A stretch of 64,000 nt of DNA from an uncultured beta proteobacterium (lineage in GTDB: Bacteria > Pseudomonadota > Gammaproteobacteria > Burkholderiales > Gallionellaceae), in contig CAWHYN010000024.1 of NCBI GenBank assembly GCA_963833515.1, forward strand, positions 114,759 through 178,758, written 5' to 3'. Below are positions 1,451 through 45,573 of the stretch, one piece after another (within the stretch, counting starts at the first letter, position 1; each line of letters opens with the position of its first letter). The translations under genes were made by a program, and so were the position numbers. The notes beneath the pieces are model-generated. The model worked only from the letters and a program-made list of their open reading frames with translations, was not told where the DNA came from and did not search any database.

Positions 1451-3342
1451 TCAGTTACGCGAAGCAATCAGAGGCTCGGTACGCGTCTGGGAACTGCCTT
1501 GCGTTCGCGCGTTCCACATGCCCCACAGGGCGTCCTCGAAATTCCGCGCAAAGCGCCGGGCGTCGAACAACGGCGATGCGCTCACCCGCTCGCGCAGCCC
1601 TGCGCGCAACGCTGCCAGTTTGGGCAGCTCGTTGGCCAGCCCCACCGCCCTGTCAATGTAATCCGTCACACCGCTGGCGACCCACTCTTCCAGCCCAGCC
1701 GCCGTGAGCAGACTGGCTCCCTGCCTCGACAGCAGCGTCTCTCCTGCCAACGTCAGCGTCGGCACCCCCATCCATAGTGCTTCGCAGGTGGTGGTCCCTC
1801 CCGGATACGGAAACGTATCCAGTATCACATCCACTTCCGCGTGGGCACCCAGGTAAGCCGCACGGGGCACGGCTCCGTACATCGCCACCCGCGAAGGATC
1901 TATGCCATGCTGTTGCACGCGCAGCGCCAGTTGTTTCGCGACGGCCGGGTCCCCGAGCTGCTTGCACTGCCAGCGCAGCTTCGCATCCGGCAAGCCACCA
2001 AGGACCCTGCCCCATGCCCCCAGCACCTCATCGCCGACCTTGGCCAGGTTCTGGAAGCAGCCGAAGGTGATATGACCGTTTTGCAGTGCGGGCAAAGATG
2101 CCACCGGCAGGTCAACCTCGGGCGCCGTGAAACACAGCCGCGTGTCCGGCAGGTACCACACCGTCTCGCTGAAGTTCTTGCGCTGTGCTTCGGGAACACC
2201 CACTTCGTCCGCCAACAGGTAATCCATTTCCGCGACCCCGGTGGTGGCGAAATACCCCAGCCAGCTCGCCTGCACCGGCGCCGGTTTCCAGGCGAATACC
2301 GGCAGGCGGGTCTTGGCGGTATGGCCGGAGAGATCCAGCAGCACGTGCACGCCGTCGGCGTGGATCAGGCGCGCGGCCGCCTCGTCGTTCAGGCCGTACA
2401 AAGGCTTCCATGCCGCAAAGCGCGGTCTGATCCGGGCGGTCAGGTCATCGGCCCGCAGGTCGGTCGGGTAGGCGATCAGCTCGATGCGCGCAGGATCAAC
2501 CTGCCCCAGCAGGCTTTCCAGAAAATAGCCCACCGGATGATTGTGCAGGTCGCCCGACACCATGCCCACCCGCAGGCGCTGCGGCTGCTCCGCGCACTGC
2601 CACGCGGAGAACCTCGACGTCACCTTCTTGCTCACCCTCCGGCCGTATTCGCGAGCCTGGTCCAGGCAGTATTCCGGGAGGTGGGCGGTATAGTTCAGAG
2701 TGAACAGCAGATTGGTCCGCGCCTCGACGAAATCCGGTTTGATCTCCAGTGCGCGTCGATAACTTTCGGCCGCTTCATCGGATCTCCCGAGGTCCTGCAG
2801 TACAATACCCAGGTTATTGTGCGCCTCGGCAAAATCGGGCTTGATCTCCAGCGCACGGCGATAGCTCGCCACCGCGGCGTCGAGCTGCCCCAGCTCTTTC
2901 AGGGCATGCCCAGGTTGTTGTGCGCCTCGGCAAAATTCGGATTGATCTTCAGTGCTCGGCGACAGCTTGCCACCGCACTTTCAAATTGCCCGCGTTCCCG
3001 AAGGGTATTGGCAAGGTTGTTATGCGCAGTGGCATCATCAGGCAAAAGTTCCGCCGTCTTTTGCAAGGCAGGCAGCGCATCCTTGCCTTGCATCTGCAGC
3101 GACAAGCCCAGTCCCATCCAGACAAACCCCGAATTGGGATAGTGCTTCAGCAGCAATAGCGCCCTGCTTTCCAGTTCCGCGTAGCGGCCAGCGTTGAACA
3201 GCGCGATAAGCTGGTTCAACTCATCGGGTGACGGACCACGAAAGCGCGAGTCAGCGGAGCGGGATTCGACCTTCCCCTCGCAACAGTGCTTGTATTTCTT
3301 CCCGCTTCCGCAACTGCACGGTTCGTTTCTTCCCGGCTTCAT
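1451..3342 (-). pseudogene. SEC-C + TPR + GT41 glycosyltransferase, short paralog split by a 1-bp deletion near 2907
   Basis: ORFs 2899..3342 and 1451..2872 join if one base is restored: cagggcatgccc here versus cagggcaatgccc in the intact paralog at about 5711-5723. The restored length is 630 aa. Confidence 0.85.
1499..2698. repeat. Near-identical 1.2-kb direct repeat of 3596..4795 (GT41 catalytic domain)
   Basis: Offset 2097. Only two mismatches noticed by eye (1712/3809 and 2426/4523), both synonymous. Shadow ORFs recur at the same offset. Confidence 0.95.
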
Positions 3343-3356
3343 GCTCTCGTTCCTGT
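2849..3356. repeat. Near-identical 0.5-kb direct repeat of 5660..6168 (RBS, SEC-C, first TPRs)
   Basis: Identical by eye except the 1-bp deletion near 2907. Identity ends 14 nt upstream of both ATGs. Confidence 0.95.
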
Positions 3357-3547
3357 ATCAATCATCAATTCATATTTTAGCAGCATCGAATTTCTAAGGC
3401 GGCTTAGTGGCGACTTGGGTTTTGTTGCTGATCTGGCAGCAATGGTGACTCAACGCGTTTTCACAGGAATCGTATGATCAGTGCCAAGGAAGAAGGATAC
3501 TCCTGCACTTCGAATGCCGGATACACGATCAAGCTGGTTTGTGGGAA

Positions 3548-6154
3548 TCAATCACGCGCGGTCGCCAGCAGATCGCAAACGTCTGTCAAATTGCGTTGCG
3601 TTCGCGCGTTCCACATGCCCCACAGGGCGTCCTCGAAATTCCGCGCAAAGCGCCGGGCGTCGAACAACGGCGATGCGCTCACCCGCTCGCGCAGCCCTGC
3701 GCGCAACGCTGCCAGTTTGGGCAGCTCGTTGGCCAGCCCCACCGCCCTGTCAATGTAATCCGTCACACCGCTGGCGACCCACTCTTCCAGCCCAGCCGCC
3801 GTGAGCAGGCTGGCTCCCTGCCTCGACAGCAGCGTCTCTCCTGCCAACGTCAGCGTCGGCACCCCCATCCATAGTGCTTCGCAGGTGGTGGTCCCTCCCG
3901 GATACGGAAACGTATCCAGTATCACATCCACTTCCGCGTGGGCACCCAGGTAAGCCGCACGGGGCACGGCTCCGTACATCGCCACCCGCGAAGGATCTAT
4001 GCCATGCTGTTGCACGCGCAGCGCCAGTTGTTTCGCGACGGCCGGGTCCCCGAGCTGCTTGCACTGCCAGCGCAGCTTCGCATCCGGCAAGCCACCAAGG
4101 ACCCTGCCCCATGCCCCCAGCACCTCATCGCCGACCTTGGCCAGGTTCTGGAAGCAGCCGAAGGTGATATGACCGTTTTGCAGTGCGGGCAAAGATGCCA
4201 CCGGCAGGTCAACCTCGGGCGCCGTGAAACACAGCCGCGTGTCCGGCAGGTACCACACCGTCTCGCTGAAGTTCTTGCGCTGTGCTTCGGGAACACCCAC
4301 TTCGTCCGCCAACAGGTAATCCATTTCCGCGACCCCGGTGGTGGCGAAATACCCCAGCCAGCTCGCCTGCACCGGCGCCGGTTTCCAGGCGAATACCGGC
4401 AGGCGGGTCTTGGCGGTATGGCCGGAGAGATCCAGCAGCACGTGCACGCCGTCGGCGTGGATCAGGCGCGCGGCCGCCTCGTCGTTCAGGCCGTACAAAG
4501 GCTTCCATGCCGCAAAGCGCGGCCTGATCCGGGCGGTCAGGTCATCGGCCCGCAGGTCGGTCGGGTAGGCGATCAGCTCGATGCGCGCAGGATCAACCTG
4601 CCCCAGCAGGCTTTCCAGAAAATAGCCCACCGGATGATTGTGCAGGTCGCCCGACACCATGCCCACCCGCAGGCGCTGCGGCTGCTCCGCGCACTGCCAC
4701 GCGGAGAACCTCGACGTCACCTTCTTGCTCACCCTCCGGCCGTATTCGCGAGCCTGGTCCAGGCAGTATTCCGGGAGGTGGGCGGTATAGTTCAGGTTGA
4801 ACAACAAATTGCCATGCGCCTCGACGAAATCCGGTTTGATCTCCAGTGCGCGACGGAAGCTTCCCTCAGCGGCTCCAGACTGTCCAAGATCATTCAGAAT
4901 ATTGCCCAAATTGCTATGCGCCTCGGCATAATCCGGTTTGATCTCCAGCGCGCGGCGGTAGCACCCCATGGCAGCGTCAGGTTGCCCCAGATCGCGGAGA
5001 GCAATGCCCAGGTTGTTGTGCGCCTCGGCAGAATCGGGCCTGATCTGCAGCGCGCAACGGTAGCTCGCCACCGCAGCGTCGGGTTGCCCAAGCTCTTCGA
5101 GGGCAATGCCCAGGTTATTGTGCGCGTCGGCGAAATCAGGTTTGATCTCAATCGCGCGGCGATAACTGGTCACTGCATCCTCGAGCTGGCCCAATTCTTT
5201 CTGGACGATGCCCAGGTTGTAATGTGCCAGAGCGAAATCTGCCTTGATTGCCACAGCATGGCGGTAGCTGGCTTCGGCATCATTGAGTCGGTCAAGGCCT
5301 TTGAAGGCGTTGCCAAGATTGTTATGCGCCTCTGCATAATCGGGCTTGATCTGCAATGCCATGCGGTAACTGGCTACCGCAGCATCGATCTGACCGCGTG
5401 CTAGCAGGGCAAGGCCCAGGTTATTGTGCGCCTCCGCAAAATCGGGTTTGATCTTCAGTGCACGAAGGTAGCTGGTCACAGCATCGTCGTATCGACCGAG
5501 TTCGTTAAGAGCGTTACCTAGGTTGGCGTGCGCATCAGCAAAATCAGGCCGTAGTTCCAATGCGCGATGGCAACTGGCCACCGCATCGTCTAACTGCCCT
5601 AGCTCTTTCAGAACATAACCGAGATTGCTATGTGCCTCTGCCAAATCGGGCTTGAGCTGCAGCGCACGGCGATAGCTCGCCACCGCGGCGTCGAGCTGCC
5701 CCAGCTCTTTCAGGGCAATGCCCAGGTTGTTGTGCGCCTCGGCAAAATTCGGATTGATCTTCAGTGCTCGGCGACAGCTTGCCACCGCACTTTCAAATTG
5801 CCCGCGTTCCCGAAGGGTATTGGCAAGGTTGTTATGCGCAGTGGCATCATCAGGCAAAAGTTCCGCCGTCTTTTGCAAGGCAGGCAGCGCATCCTTGCCT
5901 TGCATCTGCAGCGACAAGCCCAGTCCCATCCAGACAAACCCCGAATTGGGATAGTGCTTCAGCAGCAATAGCGCCCTGCTTTCCAGTTCCGCGTAGCGGC
6001 CAGCGTTGAACAGCGCGATAAGCTGGTTCAACTCATCGGGTGACGGACCACGAAAGCGCGAGTCAGCGGAGCGGGATTCGACCTTCCCCTCGCAACAGTG
6101 CTTGTATTTCTTCCCGCTTCCGCAACTGCACGGTTCGTTTCTTCCCGGCTTCAT
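3548..6154 (-). CDS. SEC-C motif + TPR array + GT41 (OGT/SPINDLY-like) glycosyltransferase, 868 aa
   Basis: N-terminal PGRNEPCSCGSGKKYKHCC (SEC-C), 10 canonical 34-aa TPRs, then LRVGMVSGDLHNHPVGYF, DLSGHT, SWLGY, LDTFPYPGGTTTCEALWMGVP. Confidence 0.92.
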   Translation of the reverse strand: MKPGRNEPCSCGSGKKYKHCCEGKVESRSADSRFRGPSPDELNQLIALFNAGRYAELESRALLLLKHYPNSGFVWMGLGLSLQMQGKDALPALQKTAELLPDDATAHNNLANTLRERGQFESAVASCRRALKINPNFAEAHNNLGIALKELGQLDAAVASYRRALQLKPDLAEAHSNLGYVLKELGQLDDAVASCHRALELRPDFADAHANLGNALNELGRYDDAVTSYLRALKIKPDFAEAHNNLGLALLARGQIDAAVASYRMALQIKPDYAEAHNNLGNAFKGLDRLNDAEASYRHAVAIKADFALAHYNLGIVQKELGQLEDAVTSYRRAIEIKPDFADAHNNLGIALEELGQPDAAVASYRCALQIRPDSAEAHNNLGIALRDLGQPDAAMGCYRRALEIKPDYAEAHSNLGNILNDLGQSGAAEGSFRRALEIKPDFVEAHGNLLFNLNYTAHLPEYCLDQAREYGRRVSKKVTSRFSAWQCAEQPQRLRVGMVSGDLHNHPVGYFLESLLGQVDPARIELIAYPTDLRADDLTARIRPRFAAWKPLYGLNDEAAARLIHADGVHVLLDLSGHTAKTRLPVFAWKPAPVQASWLGYFATTGVAEMDYLLADEVGVPEAQRKNFSETVWYLPDTRLCFTAPEVDLPVASLPALQNGHITFGCFQNLAKVGDEVLGAWGRVLGGLPDAKLRWQCKQLGDPAVAKQLALRVQQHGIDPSRVAMYGAVPRAAYLGAHAEVDVILDTFPYPGGTTTCEALWMGVPTLTLAGETLLSRQGASLLTAAGLEEWVASGVTDYIDRAVGLANELPKLAALRAGLRERVSASPLFDARRFARNFEDALWGMWNARTQRNLTDVCDLLATARD

Positions 6155-36191: not shown

Positions 36192-37148
36192 TCACTTAAT
36201 CGGTCTCCGTTCTTCTTTGCCGCTGTCGCTCTGTTTTGCTTGGTCGTATTGCTTCCGCCGCGCGTTCAGCTCATTCATCTTTCGCTTACGGTTGCGCCGC
36301 GCTGCCATGCGACGTTGCCTAGACTGTTCCAGCCGATGTTCGTCACGCGAGTCGTGCTTCACGATCGCCAAGTTCCGCCTTTGCTCAGGCGCCTTGCTGC
36401 CGCCCTGCCGCCCGCCTTCCCTTAGTTGCGCTCCGACAATCGATCCCGGATGATTGATCCGCTCGTCGCGCATTTGCTCTAATCGGCCACGAAAAGATTC
36501 CTTTCGTTGCTGGATCCGTTCCTCGATCTTTAATTTGCGTCTCGCCCAAAAGCGCGGCTGCTGCGGCAGAAGCAGCGGTGCCACAGCCCTTCCTCTTGGA
36601 GCAAATGCAAATTTTCCCGGTGACACTTCGGCCTCGCCCTGCGGCGTTTTCAGCACGGTCGCGCCCTCGTTCACAGTATCGTAGGTTCCAGGCTCGTCAC
36701 CGTCACTTTTGTCAATCACGGTCACCTCGTGGTCAGTACCTCTGATGCCAATGGTGGCGGAAGGCGTGGTGACATGATAAGCCGACGAATTGTGCTTGCC
36801 TACCCAGCCGGTAATAGAACGCATGGCTCCCCTGAGTAGTGACATGAATATCTTGTCTGCGGAATTACCCTCCGCTTTGTATTCATCCACGCGAAACGCC
36901 GTGTCCGGACGCACGGCGATAATGCCGCCATCTTCGGTAATGAGATGCACTTCGCCGTCTGGCCCGGAGCTAATGGTCTGGCCTTCATATATCCTAAGGC
37001 CGACATAGACGGAAGTGGATTCACCCGCTTGATCCGAGACGTAGGCACTGCCGGAAAGTGCGTCGACAGTGCCAAATAATTCCGCCGGAAACGCTGCATG
37101 ACAAACCATCAGCAGTATCGCCGATGCAAGGACGTTTCTCAGTTTCAT
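36192..37148 (-). CDS. Exported FecR-domain protein
   Basis: Signal peptide; GQTISSGPDGEVHL, LLRGAMRSITG, TPSATIGIRGT. Confidence 0.8.
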   Translation of the reverse strand: MKLRNVLASAILLMVCHAAFPAELFGTVDALSGSAYVSDQAGESTSVYVGLRIYEGQTISSGPDGEVHLITEDGGIIAVRPDTAFRVDEYKAEGNSADKIFMSLLRGAMRSITGWVGKHNSSAYHVTTPSATIGIRGTDHEVTVIDKSDGDEPGTYDTVNEGATVLKTPQGEAEVSPGKFAFAPRGRAVAPLLLPQQPRFWARRKLKIEERIQQRKESFRGRLEQMRDERINHPGSIVGAQLREGGRQGGSKAPEQRRNLAIVKHDSRDEHRLEQSRQRRMAARRNRKRKMNELNARRKQYDQAKQSDSGKEERRPIK

Positions 37149-37449
37149 TCCTCCCGAGCCGTGCCTATCCGATTTAACCATTCAGCATCCCATGTAAACG
37201 GACTGGAGTAACAACCAACCCTTGAAATCTCTCGAAGTGCCTTAACGGTGATGATAGCCCAGGTCCGCTCCAACGTCACTTTTTGGTATCCCATTATTTC
37301 TTTCCGTGCTGATGATTTTCGGCGCTGATGATTGCTCCTCCCGGCCACTCGATGCCTGACGCTGCACAGGTGCCTTGAACTCGCCAGCCAACAACGATCC
37401 GACGTTCACGGAATCGGCAGAGAAACACTGCACGGAATGATAAGCGCCC

Positions 37450-39622: not shown

Positions 39623-40503
39623 TTGACCGTCCCGATGTCAGATAAGCAATTTCGAAGTGTCATGCTCGTTTTTAATTGTAGAACGGAAAAGGTGCCAAGG
39701 GGTGCGGTTGTTGACGGATTTCGCTTGGCGCGCTGCCGCTAGTGATTTCAACCGAAGTGAATCCGGGGAATACGCCTCTTTAGTTCCGTAGGTCACCACC
39801 AGGCAACGGGGTTTCCCGCTTTGAGCGCTTTTCTTGCGCGCATGATGCGCCCAACGAGGTGCCTGGCGACTGAGTGCCCTGCGTCACTCGATCAGCACAG
39901 GCACATCAGGCCTCCCCGATGTCCATGCGAATTCGTCTTGTGCATCGCCCTTTTCGAGAACATGGCGGTTCCTCGCCATTGAGGCCCTAGCACCCGGGCT
40001 GTTACCGCCTTTCGAGAAGCCCTATACCAGAAGGCCTCAAGCATATTGCGACTTCCACTGTTGCTGCGGTTCTTTGCGTTCCGGCAGCTTTCCTGAGGGG
40101 CCTTGCACCGACAAAGATGCAAGGTGTTTGCACGATGCACTCCAATGTCAGCCGTTCAGAAATATCTTCGGCATTGGCAATCAAGCACCAAGTTTCATCA
40201 GCAAAGGGTCTGAAGAGAGGTTATGGCATGGAGATTCTCGGATGCATTGAGGAGCGTGCGAAACCGGCCTCAGCATCCATAATAATCACCCAAGTCACGC
40301 AGGCTTGGGGCATCCCGCGTAGTGCCGACATCGCGCCAGGACGCAGGCTCAAAAAGGGGGGAGTGACACCGACAACACTTGCTTTATTGCCGCCCAAGAT
40401 TCCCCATCAACAGGATTCCGGACCGAAGAAAAAAACGAGGGATAGCAAAGGGATGGAATAACCGGCGGCCAAAACAGTTGCCGTCGGAGGCAAACGGGCG
40501 GAG

Positions 40504-40551
40504 CTGTAACGACAGCCTGGCGCCTGTCGTTACAGGCGCCAGGCTGTTGTT
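40504..40551. repeat. Nested inverted repeat (20-bp stem 40508-40551; alternative 12-bp stem 40504-40535); possible terminator
   Basis: aacgacagcctggcgcctgt/acaggcgccaggctgttgtt and ctgtaacgacag/ctgtcgttacag read directly. The U-tracts are poor. Confidence 0.8.
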
Positions 40552-40596
40552 GTCCTTAGTTTGTAGCGGCGTCCTAAAGCGAGCCCGCAAAATCGT

Positions 40597-41045: not shown

Positions 41046-41074
41046 TTTACATGCGAATAATTATCATTTACATT
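41046..41074 (+). promoter_or_regulatory. Sigma70 promoter (TTTACA-N17-TACATT) overlapped by a Fur box
   Basis: TGCGAATAATTATCATTTACA (41052-41072) lies between the -35 and -10 elements, upstream of iron-uptake genes. Confidence 0.8.
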
Positions 41075-41110
41075 TCGCTCTACTAACTTGAGGTCATCAG
41101 AGGAAAAATT

Positions 41111-41467
41111 ATGCGGGCTCCATTTTTCGTATCAATGATATTCGCTAGCGCACTTGCAATGAACGGTGTCGCATTGGCAGGAACCGAATCGCCGGCCTTG
41201 TTGGTCATACATAACAAACAGTTTGACCCGAACAAACTTGTAGTTTCAGCGGGAGCCAAGGTGAAGCTGATCATCCGCAACCTGGATGAATTACCGGTCG
41301 AATTTGAAAGCTCCGACCTTTCCCGTGAGGTCATCGTGGCTGGACACGGCGAAGTGACAATCTATATCGGGCCGATGGAGCCGGGGAACTACCAGTTTTT
41401 TAATGATTTTGATCACGAAATGCAGGGCACGATCGAAGCGCGGTCCGCCGCAAACAAGGAGAACTAG
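41111..41467 (+). CDS. Periplasmic cupredoxin-domain protein (EfeO-N/FtrB-like)
   Basis: Signal peptide; PVEFES, LSREVIV, PGNYQFFNDFDH. Confidence 0.85.
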   Translation: MRAPFFVSMIFASALAMNGVALAGTESPALLVIHNKQFDPNKLVVSAGAKVKLIIRNLDELPVEFESSDLSREVIVAGHGEVTIYIGPMEPGNYQFFNDFDHEMQGTIEARSAANKEN

Positions 41468-41468
41468 T

Positions 41469-42305
41469 ATGCTCTCAACAGCCATCATCATGTTTCGCGA
41501 AGTGCTGGAAGCAGCACTTATCATCGCCATTGTGCTCAGCGCAAGCCGCGGAATCGCAGGCCGCGGCCGCTGGGTCGCAGGTGGAATTGGCATTGGATTA
41601 CTCGGCGCATCCATCGTGGCAATCTTGGCCAATGTCGCCTCCTCTGTCTTTTCCGGTAATGGGCAAGCTATGCTCAACGCCGTGATCCTTCTCAGTGCGG
41701 TTGCCATGCTGACTTGGCATAACGTCTGGATGAGTGCGCATGGCCGGCAGCTTTCATCAGAGGTGAAGGCCGTCGGTTTGGATGTTCGGTCCGGTGAACG
41801 CCCGCTGACTGCATTGCTCATCATCACGCTGGCAGCGGTGATGCGCGAGGGATCCGAGGCCGTATTGTTTCTTTGGGCGATTGCCACGAGCGGCGAGCAA
41901 GGCCTCAACATGGTCTTGGGTGGTTTGGGTGGCGTAGTCGCTGGCATCCTAGTCGGCCTGTTGTTGTATCTTGGTCTGCTGCGCATTCCTGTCCGACACT
42001 TCTTTTCGATTACGAGCTGGCTAATCCTGCTCCTGGCCTCTGGACTGGCGGCACAGGCGGCCGGCTTCCTCAACCAAATCGGCCTGGTGCCATCCCTGGG
42101 GAACGCGGTGTGGAATACCTCGACGATCCTCAACCAATCCAGCATGGTCGGGCAGCTGCTGCACATTCTGGTGGGCTACATCGCCCGGCCCTCCGGCATC
42201 GAGGTCGTGTTCTACGTCGGTACGTTCCTGACCATCCTCATCTTGATGCGTACATATGGCAACAGCCTGGGTGTGCCGGTAAAGGCCACAGGAAATCCAG
42301 CTTAA
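41469..42305 (+). CDS. FTR1-family iron permease
   Basis: Two RExxE motifs (FREVLEAA, MREGSEAV) and about 7 TM segments. Confidence 0.92.
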   Translation: MLSTAIIMFREVLEAALIIAIVLSASRGIAGRGRWVAGGIGIGLLGASIVAILANVASSVFSGNGQAMLNAVILLSAVAMLTWHNVWMSAHGRQLSSEVKAVGLDVRSGERPLTALLIITLAAVMREGSEAVLFLWAIATSGEQGLNMVLGGLGGVVAGILVGLLLYLGLLRIPVRHFFSITSWLILLLASGLAAQAAGFLNQIGLVPSLGNAVWNTSTILNQSSMVGQLLHILVGYIARPSGIEVVFYVGTFLTILILMRTYGNSLGVPVKATGNPA

Positions 42306-42393
42306 AAGGCCCTTACTGAAGCAGTTGCAATCAATCCCATGGCAGGGAAGTTCTGTCGCAAGAACTCTAACGAAATCCACAGGAGTAGTATTG

Positions 42394-43137
42394 GTGACAG
42401 CGAACCGAATATTGGTACCCATTGCAGCGCTTACGATCATATTCGGTCTTGCAGCGAAGGTTGCACGTGCAGACAACGACTTCATCGTCTATTCACCCTA
42501 TGTCGTCCAAGGACAAAGTGAAGTTGAAACATATGGGTTCGATTCTGTGGATGGTCGGAGCGCCCTCAATGCGGCGAGTGGCTACAACATTTCAGTTGCG
42601 CATGCCTTCACCAGTTGGTGGAAGACGGAGGTGTATGTCGGTGAGTTCAATCGTGACCCTGGAGGCTCGACACATCCGTCGGGCTATGAATTCGAGAACA
42701 CATTCCAACTTACCGCGCCGGGTGAATACTGGGCCGACGTAGGATTTCTGGCATCCTATGCGTACAATAAACAAGCGGGGTTAGGGAACAGCCTCGAATT
42801 TGGTCCGCTATTGGAGAAGTTGTCCGGACATATTGATCAACGTCTAAATTTTGTCTGGAAAAGACCGATTGGGAGCGGAGATACTGGATCGAATGAGTTC
42901 CGGTCGGCCTACAGCATCAGCTACAAGATCAATGCTGGCCATGCAACATATTCACCTGGTCTAGAAGCCTATTACCGCCCCAATGACAACGCCAACCAAA
43001 TCGGGCCAGTACTTTATGGAGAGCTCCGAACAAATGCGGGAAGCGAACTGGAATATAGCCTAGGTATCGTTTTTGGCATCAATCAGGCTGCTCCCGACAA
43101 GACATTTCTGGCTCGCCTGGAATACGAGTTCTTTTAA
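42394..43137 (+). CDS. Predicted outer-membrane beta-barrel protein
   Basis: RBS AGGAG plus GTG start, signal peptide ending VARA, alternating aromatic strands, C-terminal RLEYEFF. Confidence 0.7.
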   Translation: MTANRILVPIAALTIIFGLAAKVARADNDFIVYSPYVVQGQSEVETYGFDSVDGRSALNAASGYNISVAHAFTSWWKTEVYVGEFNRDPGGSTHPSGYEFENTFQLTAPGEYWADVGFLASYAYNKQAGLGNSLEFGPLLEKLSGHIDQRLNFVWKRPIGSGDTGSNEFRSAYSISYKINAGHATYSPGLEAYYRPNDNANQIGPVLYGELRTNAGSELEYSLGIVFGINQAAPDKTFLARLEYEFF

Positions 43138-43512: not shown

Positions 43513-44469
43513 CTAGCATCCCTTGAATTTGTTTGCGATGCATCTTCTGGCGAGTTCCTGCGCTTGGCTGATTTGGTTTGCATTCAATTGTTTTGCAACA
43601 AAGGCTCGTATTTCAGCTGAAAGCTTTTGCACGTTGCCACTTGTTTCATCAGAAGTCGCGATGTATGCCCACATGTATGCCAGGAAATAATCTTGAGGGA
43701 CCCCTTGGCCATTGCCATACAACACCCCCAGATTCAATTGTGCTTTAGCACTACCTTGCTCAGCTGCAAGCCTATACCACTTTGCCGCTTCCTTGTAATC
43801 TTGAGGGACACCATTTCCTTTGGCATACATCAACGCAAGATTGAATTGTGCCTTGGCATTGCCCTGTTCTGCTGCCTGTTTCCACCAGCGCACCGCGGCA
43901 TGGTAATTTTGCGGGGTACCTTGCCCTAAGTAATACATCGCCCCAAGATTGAATTGTGCATTCGCAAGGCCCTGTTCAGCAGCCAGCTGGTGCCACTTCA
44001 TCGCTTCCCGGTAGTCTTGAGCAAGGCCATTTCCTTTGTCATATATGTTCCCAAGGTTATCTTGTGCCTCGGCGATACCCTGTTCTGCCGCCAGCTGATA
44101 CCACTTTGCCGCTTCCTTGTAATCTTGAGGGACGCCATTTCCCAGGTCGTACATCAGCCCAAGGTTGAATTGGGCATTTGCGTTGCCCTGTTCTGCCGCC
44201 AGCCGATGCCACTTCACAGCCTCTTTGTAGTCCCGGGAAACACCATTTCCTGATGCATACATCAATCCGAGTTTGAATTGCGCTTCAGCAAGTCCGTGTT
44301 CCGCCAGCGGTCTGAATAGCCTTGCGGCTTTTTCATAGTCATCTGCTTCGAACGCTCTCTCTGCGTCGAGCACTTTCTCCGAATCAGACGGCGAATCAGC
44401 AACGACCTGTCCGCTTAGCACAAACAAGCAAAAGCCAATCAACAACAACTGCCCTACCGGCTGCTTCAT
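43513..44469 (-). CDS. Exported Sel1-repeat protein
   Basis: About 6 36-aa repeats (AQFNLGLMYDLGNGVPQDYKEAAKWYQLAAEQG). A 36-nt identical DNA block occurs at 43774 and 44098 (offset 3x108). Confidence 0.92.
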   Translation of the reverse strand: MKQPVGQLLLIGFCLFVLSGQVVADSPSDSEKVLDAERAFEADDYEKAARLFRPLAEHGLAEAQFKLGLMYASGNGVSRDYKEAVKWHRLAAEQGNANAQFNLGLMYDLGNGVPQDYKEAAKWYQLAAEQGIAEAQDNLGNIYDKGNGLAQDYREAMKWHQLAAEQGLANAQFNLGAMYYLGQGTPQNYHAAVRWWKQAAEQGNAKAQFNLALMYAKGNGVPQDYKEAAKWYRLAAEQGSAKAQLNLGVLYGNGQGVPQDYFLAYMWAYIATSDETSGNVQKLSAEIRAFVAKQLNANQISQAQELARRCIANKFKGC

Positions 44470-45122: not shown

Positions 45123-45464
45123 TCACCTTTCCCCGCCTCTATTGGCATTGTAAATCTGCCACGTCGCGAGAGCGACGACCGCTGCACCTACCCCGACGGC
45201 AGTGATCGTCGCTTCCTTCTCCATTGCGAAATCAAGCGAATAAGGAGAAAGAATTAGCCAGAGCCCGAGCAGGATATTGAAGATTTCCTGCCCTTCATCC
45301 AGCAGTCTGGCGGCTGCGATGAGGTTAAAGAAGATGAGCGCCGCCCCAAGTCCGCAACTATTTCCCGTGGCGGCCCTGTTGAGCGAATAACCTATTTCCC
45401 ATGGCGAAACAACGAGCACGAAACCCAACAGAACATTCGTCCAATCCTGCCATCGTTTAAACAT
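45123..45464 (-). CDS. SPW-repeat membrane protein (ORF extends to 45527)
   Basis: RWQDWTNVLLGFVLVVSPW and NILLGLWLILSPY. Confidence 0.8.
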   Translation of the reverse strand: MFKRWQDWTNVLLGFVLVVSPWEIGYSLNRAATGNSCGLGAALIFFNLIAAARLLDEGQEIFNILLGLWLILSPYSLDFAMEKEATITAVGVGAAVVALATWQIYNANRGGER

Positions 45465-45573
45465 CACCGAAGCCCTCTGCGTTGCCGTTAGGCCATTATA
45501 GTCTTCTGGACAGGAAACCAAAGCCATCGTAAGCGGAAGATGAACGCAGCTGAGGGGCTCACAATGGCTTATT

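Follow-up and report, generated by a model that had tools for sequence, protein, structure and literature searches.

A Fur-boxed operon joining an FtrB-like cupredoxin and an FTR1 permease to a predicted 12-stranded outer-membrane barrel, a candidate trans-envelope iron importer

The stretch of DNA analysed here, referred to below as the window, comprises 64,000 nucleotides (nt) of contig CAWHYN010000024.1 (C24) from the 3.69-Mb, 96% complete genome (G000, assembly GCA_963833515.1) of an uncultured beta proteobacterium of the Gallionellaceae, and positions given without a genome or locus handle are those of the window. At 41046-43137, the plus strand carries a promoter with a Fur-type box and, behind it, three genes in the same orientation, which encode a cupredoxin, an FTR1 permease, and a β-barrel protein. 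This arrangement had been proposed earlier from the sequence alone, and the three genes were found exactly where the original prediction had placed them. The closest relatives of the locus were from Gallionella, Gallionellaceae, and Sideroxydans assemblies. The features of the locus are the following.

41046-41074, plus strand: sigma-70-like promoter TTTACA-17-TACATT, from a consensus scan with 9/12 hexamer matches
41053-41071, no strand assigned: Fur-type box, minus-strand GTAAATGATAATTATTCGC, located between the promoter hexamers and overlapping the spacer and the -10 hexamer
41111-41467, plus strand: cupredoxin gene, 118 amino acids, FtrB-like, periplasmic, signal peptide ending in VALA before G (PF13473, E 4e-22)
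41469-42305, plus strand: FTR1 permease gene, 278 amino acids, FtrC/EfeU-like (PF03239, E 8e-31)
42306-42393, plus strand: spacer between the FTR1 and barrel genes, 88 nt, with the ribosome-binding site AGGAG at 42381-42385
42394-42471, plus strand: barrel signal peptide, 26 amino acids, cleavage between ARA and D, no lipobox
42472-43137, plus strand: mature 12-stranded outer-membrane β-barrel of an unnamed family, predicted with AlphaFold2, C-terminus LEYEFF

The cupredoxin ATG lies 37 nt from the end of the promoter, and only 1 nt separates the cupredoxin gene from the FTR1 gene. The barrel gene as a whole (42394-43137, 247 amino acids) has a GTG start codon with AGGAG 8 nt before it. No terminator-like site was detected in the 88-nt spacer, and its RNA fold was no better than that of shuffled sequence (z 0.43); on the basis of this terminator scan and fold comparison, a regulatory RNA or a terminator in the spacer was rejected.

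The cupredoxin was matched to the structure of Brucella FtrB (8VUK) with an E value of 1e-9. In FtrB, an Fe(II) mimic is bound by E84, E86, and E93, the mimic in the crystals being Mn(II) (PMC11966278). These positions correspond to E64, E66 (E or D), and E73 of the present protein, all three fully or almost fully conserved among 30 orthologues and part of the motif EFES..L.RE; the protein contains no Cys. The FTR1 permease has about seven hydrophobic segments and two REXXE motifs, namely REVLE (residue 10) and REGSE (residue 126). Its score with the EfeU equivalog model NF041756 was 141.5 bits, which is below the cut-off of 255.

The original prediction had taken the third protein to be a barrel, and the structure prediction bore this out. 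With an alignment of 94 homologues (A1) as input, AlphaFold2 returned a model with a mean predicted local distance difference test score (pLDDT) of 93.4 and a predicted template modelling score (pTM) of 0.84, in which 12 strands follow the signal peptide, while the signal-peptide helix (residues 7-18) had a low pLDDT and lay outside the barrel. Foldseek matched the model to FapF, NanC, Tsx, and OmpG. The VIA-align Z scores were 21.2 for NalP, 20.9 for FapF, 20.4 for the COG4313 channel, 18.3 for KdgM, and 16.4 for NanC, all of which are 12-stranded outer-membrane barrels; the superpositions covered 170-216 residues with a root-mean-square deviation of 2.4-3.0 Å at a sequence identity of 7-13%. 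The loops and turns of the model are short on both faces, and the protein has no Cys and ends in the aromatic sequence EYEFF. With its predicted closed antiparallel barrel, its Sec signal peptide, and its C-terminal aromatic β-signal, the protein has the features of the 12-strand class of outer-membrane proteins.

No family was returned for the barrel protein from Pfam (E values up to 1) or from NCBIfam, and the family profile matched no chain sequence in the PDB. Among the 94 homologues, the sub-threshold Pfam matches were OMP_b-brl in seven, Phenol_MetA_deg in one, and DUF481 in one, and the gathering threshold was not reached for the named barrel families KdgM (PF06178), OMP_b-brl (PF13505), Phenol_MetA_deg (PF13557), DUF481, and BcsS. 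Because there was no PDB sequence match and the OMP_b-brl matches were so few, the family is regarded as unnamed. Two existing labels were set aside, namely the Atlas name "BcsS", which is an automatic label without Pfam support, and the UniRef name "lipoprotein" of one relative, which was rejected because the lack of Cys and a signal peptide ending in ARA before D argue against a lipoprotein.

The lumen side of each strand was taken to be its more polar face, following strand alternation. On this assignment, the conserved residues E43, E45, E79, E101, D115, E191, E243, and E245, each of them acidic in 80-96% of the 94 sequences, face the lumen together with the likewise conserved N152 and Q105, and the conserved acidic positions alternate with hydrophobic ones along the strands. 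Judging from strand direction and topology, most of the acidic lumen residues would lie in the periplasmic half of the barrel. Conservation also extends to the N-terminal segment (residues 27-41), which carries the motif VYSPxVxxGE.

The order cupredoxin-FTR1-barrel was retained at 8 of 11 loci of the relatives, as located by tblastn, and at 17 of 20 loci taken from separate families within the class. A synteny survey, which had been suggested along with the original prediction, extended this to 80 named loci, including those of Gallionella, Sideroxydans, Rhodanobacter, and Dyella: the full order was kept in 64, while 8 had cupredoxin-barrel, 3 had FTR1-barrel, and 5 had the barrel only. Variant orders were also met, with cupredoxin-barrel-FTR1 at locus L010 and FTR1-cupredoxin-barrel at locus L040. 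For a class-wide sample, the same 300 genomes were searched for the barrel and for PF03239, and the counts were made by hand. The barrel adjoins FTR1 in about 18 of the 27 sampled genomes that have a full-length short FTR1, and the barrel-linked form is the majority among the short FTR1 genes of this sample. Two genomes, G336 and G079, are used in support of no claim.

An exhaustive search of 1.8 billion representatives yielded 589 relatives of the barrel (clusters at 50% identity, E 1e-3 or better). Many of them are fusion proteins of 510-526 amino acids, made up in this order of a full FTR1, an internal signal peptide consisting of a hydrophobic segment with an AxA site, and the barrel. The fusion was verified on the DNA of two independent assemblies, where a cupredoxin gene precedes it as well, and was present in five of the sampled genomes. 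From the family topology, the C-terminus of FTR1 is expected in the cytoplasm; the internal signal peptide would bring the fused barrel to the outer side of the inner membrane and, once cleaved, set it free. Such fusions speak strongly for a joint function of the two proteins. Because the synteny is wide and the genes are also found fused, the barrel is assigned to the cupredoxin and FTR1, and we hold it very probable that the three proteins, the outer-membrane barrel included, form one functional module.

Some of these loci were recorded individually. FTR1 and the barrel form one open reading frame (ORF) of 514-526 amino acids in P0135, P0154, P0168, and P0182 and at L016:4649-6199, with the AxA site kept at the internal signal peptide. 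Genome G189 carries two identical FTR1-barrel copies 20 kb apart on contig C2 (150424-152100 and 170676-172352), each interrupted by one TAG within the barrel match, which could be a duplicated segment with a pseudogene or a case of read-through. Within the module, the cupredoxin and the barrel seem to be the most tightly linked pair. At locus L031 (contig C13 of genome G048, 1935-5455, minus strand), this pair is followed, 760 nt downstream, by a co-oriented Nramp (MntH-like) gene, and no PF03239 match was found in that genome. An Nramp gene beside the pair was not seen in four related genomes, one of which has FTR1-cupredoxin-barrel, and the link was treated as an anecdote, being a single case that was not repeated in these relatives.

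As the original prediction had stated, a Fur box lies inside the promoter. The site at 41053-41071 matches the Fur consensus GATAATGATAATCATTATC at 14 of 19 positions on the minus strand and at 13 of 19 on the plus strand. A score of at least 14/19 is reached by chance in about 1% of random 230-nt windows of the genome, which holds 114 matches of this level in total, and a single match taken alone is weak evidence. The 220 nt upstream of the cupredoxin gene were therefore scanned in the orthologues for a GCNAATGATAATCGTTCTC-type box. Such a box with a score of at least 14 was present at 15 of 30 loci (relatives and other families), and among the named loci it was present in 50 of 72 at a score of at least 14 and in 63 of 72 at a score of at least 13. 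Because it recurs in so many orthologous promoters, the box is considered to go beyond chance. The genome has only one Fur-family gene (G000:C12:219430-219789). On contig C12, this gene diverges from a second, paralogous cupredoxin-FTR1 locus, and a 14/19 box lies in the region separating the two. With the box overlapping the promoter and a fur gene present, Fur control of the operon is predicted.

The paralogous locus beside the fur gene (L013, G000:C12:218707-222465) is a second, decaying copy of the module. Its cupredoxin ORF appears degenerate at the N-terminus and its barrel remnant has an in-frame TGA, while the FTR1 gene is intact (274 amino acids).

The usual partners of such permeases were looked for as well. 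No EfeB, P19, or FtrD-like gene adjoins the operon, in agreement with the original prediction. Furthermore, PF10634 (P19/FtrA), PF04261 (DyP/EfeB), and PF09375 (M75/EfeO) had no match in the whole 96%-complete genome, so that three of the four partners are absent genome-wide. For the polyferredoxin FtrD, none was found at the locus, a statement that covers the flanking genes only and no genome-wide search, NapH-like ferredoxins being unspecific.

A complex was predicted from the processed forms of the barrel (residues 27-247, with alignment A1) and of the cupredoxin (residues 24-118, with alignment A2). The interaction prediction score from aligned errors (ipSAE) was 0.85 (0.86, 0.85, and 0.83 in the three runs), compared with 0.01 for the best control. 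The mark applied to this score was reached by 58 of 80 solved complexes and by 2 of 110 mismatched pairs, which gives a rough guide only, as own alignments were used. The three runs had at least 96% of their contacts in common, and the pLDDT of the partner was at least 87. On the barrel side, the predicted interface is confined to the N-terminal residues 36-41, the C-terminus, and the turns at 74, 108-111, 143-146, 178-182, and 212-216. These are the turns after strands 2, 4, 6, 8, and 10, and by the topology of outer-membrane proteins the interface is predicted to lie on the periplasmic face. On the cupredoxin side, the contacts are made by residues 61-86 and 99-102, and two residues of the metal site, E64 and E73, are among them. 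In the model, the cupredoxin would thus cap the periplasmic mouth of the barrel, with its metal site turned towards the exit and placed beside the acidic cluster. We know of no solved complex of this kind, and the prediction is therefore unlikely to repeat a known structure.

We interpret the locus as an Ftr-type, Fur-repressed iron importer that spans the envelope and has three components (the barrel, the cupredoxin, and FTR1), and assign this reading a probability of roughly 0.6. When iron is low, Fur would dissociate from its promoter-overlapping box, allowing joint transcription of the three genes. The barrel would be located in the outer membrane, where the Glu/Asp cluster of its lumen, densest towards the periplasmic end, would pass Fe(II) as a hydrated divalent cation. 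The cupredoxin, docked at the periplasmic mouth, would accept the ion at its invariant E-x-E...E metal site facing the exit and would pass it to FTR1, whose two REXXE motifs would carry it across the inner membrane; the Fe(II) may or may not be oxidized en route. P19 (FtrA), the polyferredoxin FtrD, the M75 part of EfeO, and EfeB would play no part in such a system.

A three-part Fe(II) uptake variant with a dedicated barrel had also been put forward in the original prediction. The fold, the synteny, the fusions, the Fur box, the absent partners, and the predicted docking all speak for it, while the passage of iron through the barrel is a step that we infer. The conserved acidic residues of the lumen, together with the genomic context, make it somewhat better than an even chance that the barrel is a metal conduit. 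A more ambitious version of the importer reading, which we regard as tentative and place a little short of even odds, is that the barrel and the cupredoxin constitute a dedicated outer-membrane gate for Fe(II), leading from the acidic channel through the iron site of the docked cupredoxin to FTR1. Such a gate would give free Fe(II) a path across the whole envelope that needs neither TonB nor general porins, and the arrangement is apparently the commonest context of short FTR1 genes in the class; in the fused lineages, a polyprotein cut at the internal signal peptide would supply both membranes.

Parts of the module are shared with known systems. The Cup-II FtrB cupredoxin with its iron triad is common to the present locus, to FtrABCD of Bordetella, Brucella, and Burkholderia, and to FtrAPBCD of Rubrivivax gelatinosus (PMC11966278, PMC5681537). 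As in FtrABCD, the cupredoxin gene immediately precedes that of an FTR1 permease (FtrC) carrying two REXXE motifs, and expression is iron-regulated, which is here predicted from the Fur box. In contrast to FtrABCD, there is no FtrA (P19) in the genome and no FtrD at the locus, D118 and H121 of FtrB are not conserved, and an extra 12-stranded barrel is present, which is predicted to bind the cupredoxin and is fused to FTR1 in some lineages. The FTR1-family permease is also found in EfeUOB of Escherichia coli and Bacillus subtilis and in EfeUOB/M of Pseudomonas syringae (PMC9174327, PMC3577903), and further likenesses to EfeUOB are a cupredoxin domain, as at the N-terminus of EfeO, and an operon under Fur regulation, predicted in the present case. 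The present permease, however, is below the EfeU cut-off, neither M75 nor DyP occurs in the genome, and the barrel has no counterpart in EfeUOB.

The Ftr and Efe systems have been described without an outer-membrane component, as the original prediction had stated of a dedicated channel for EfeUOB and FtrABCD, and in the same papers Fe(II) is said to enter through porins (PMC11966278, PMC5681537, PMC9174327). No description of a cupredoxin-FTR1-barrel module or of an FTR1-barrel fusion was found in the literature searched, most subscription journals being outside its coverage. The module is a widespread architecture that is not peculiar to the studied locus, and it is apparently undescribed. 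Among known barrels, NalP (1uyn), EspP, FapF (5o65), the COG4313 channel (4rl8), and KdgM/NanC (4pr7, 2wjq) have the same fold, size, signal peptide, and C-terminal aromatic residue (Z 16-21), whereas the present protein has no passenger domain or coiled coil, very short loops, a conserved acidic cluster in its lumen, and partner genes of metal uptake. The closest precedent in concept is MnoP of Bradyrhizobium japonicum, which is likewise a small, metal-regulated outer-membrane protein feeding a free divalent metal to a high-affinity inner-membrane importer, as cited in PMC9334652. MnoP differs in its Mn substrate and its Mur regulator and has no known periplasmic partner; the likeness is one of functional analogy only.

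Several points weigh against the importer reading. General porins are commonly regarded as the route of Fe(II) across the outer membrane (PMC5681537), and a dedicated channel is not obviously needed. The barrel family occurs without a detectable FTR1 in about one-third of the sampled genomes having the barrel, and its role may be broader than serving FTR1. That one transcript runs through the 88-nt spacer is itself something that we infer, and the score of the complex is the model's own confidence and no evidence that the two proteins bind each other in cells. The copper ligands D118 and H121 of FtrB are replaced by N98 and D101 in the present cupredoxin, at positions that vary among the orthologues, which weakens the analogy with an oxidase-permease pair; because the Brucella ligands are not conserved, a pure metallochaperone role of the cupredoxin may be at least as likely as a ferroxidase role. 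Copper ligands also differ between FtrB clusters, and the Rubrivivax protein bound no copper (PMC11966278).

A further point against the importer concerns the lumen and leads to its main rival, in which the barrel, its lumen being closed, would serve to anchor or dock the cupredoxin at the outer membrane, and the cupredoxin catches (or oxidizes) Fe(II) that has entered through porins and relays it to FTR1. Autotransporter and FapF barrels are plugged at rest, and NalP, EspP, and FapF are the closest folds to the present barrel. The predicted cupredoxin-barrel interface, which is the strongest new result, supports binding and not conduction; the cupredoxin-barrel pair stays together where FTR1 lies elsewhere, and the conserved segment VYSPxVxxGE could fill the lumen. 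We nevertheless consider a mere anchor unlikely. The ring of acidic residues conserved in the lumen is hard to explain on that account, residues 36-41 of the N-terminal segment are found at the interface, outside the lumen, and the open 12-stranded channels COG4313, KdgM, and NanC score nearly as high as the plugged barrels. It is decidedly less probable that a divalent metal other than iron (Mn, Zn, Cu, or Pb) is imported or handled by the module, or that the barrel brings copper to the cupredoxin. The conserved Fur-type box upstream of most loci, the fur gene adjoining the paralogous locus, and the intact REXXE motifs and FtrB iron triad all argue for iron, and delivery of copper fits poorly with a cupredoxin that has no Cys and does not conserve the FtrB copper ligands. 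Another metal would be in keeping with the PbrT-type lead transporters of the FTR1 superfamily (PMC11647595), with the Mn(II) bound in FtrB crystals (PMC11966278), and with the precedent of a Mn-specific outer-membrane channel in MnoP (PMC9334652). The Nramp gene located 760 nt downstream of the pair on the same strand in one genome points the same way, although this neighbourhood is absent in the relatives checked.

Since the closest relatives are Gallionella and Sideroxydans genomes, a role in the energy metabolism or iron detoxification of a Gallionellaceae-like iron oxidizer was also weighed, for instance as a porin-cupredoxin device for Fe(II) oxidation similar to Cyc2, a fused cytochrome-porin, or as an outlet that prevents precipitation of Fe(III) in the periplasm. 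A cupredoxin fold of the redox type predicted to be bound to an outer-membrane barrel would suit such a device. The same module is, however, common in heterotrophs such as Rhodanobacter and Dyella, the Fur box is a signature of iron-repressed uptake genes, neither the cupredoxin nor the barrel has a heme-binding motif or a Cys, the copper site is not conserved, and the module is fused to the importer FTR1; we regard this explanation as very improbable. The least credible of all is that the third gene encodes an unrelated outer-membrane protein that merely lies downstream. The 88-nt gap before the barrel gene and its lack of a named family would allow this, but the gap is free of terminators, the synteny extends across many families, in-frame fusions to FTR1 recur, and a specific interface with the cupredoxin is predicted.

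If the reading as a trans-envelope iron importer is correct, it adds a missing first step to ferrous-iron uptake, in place of the textbook diffusion through porins (PMC5681537), and provides a function for a sizeable unnamed family (589 clusters at 50% identity). The FtrB-type cupredoxins, whose role is debated, would then be seen as taking over metal at the outer membrane. Not only iron oxidizers but also soil bacteria available in culture (Rhodanobacter, Dyella) carry the module, which makes the proposal testable, and the fused forms pose a separate question of how one gene product serves two membranes.

The genes flanking the operon are unrelated to it. Downstream lies the Sel1-repeat gene, while a FlK-type thioesterase, a PEGA/SHOCT protein, a DUF1614 protein, and a FecR-like protein are encoded upstream. 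Unnamed small ORFs are also among the flanking genes. No link to the iron operon was seen for the following neighbours.

43513-44469, minus strand: six-repeat Sel1 protein, convergent on the barrel gene
45123-45527, minus strand: SPW-repeat membrane protein
36192-37181, minus strand: FecR-domain protein

A perfect 20-bp GC-rich inverted repeat with a T-rich tail was observed at 40506-40553, located 3′ of an unnamed ORF of 114 amino acids (40117-40461), and is probably a strong intrinsic terminator that shields the iron operon from upstream transcription.

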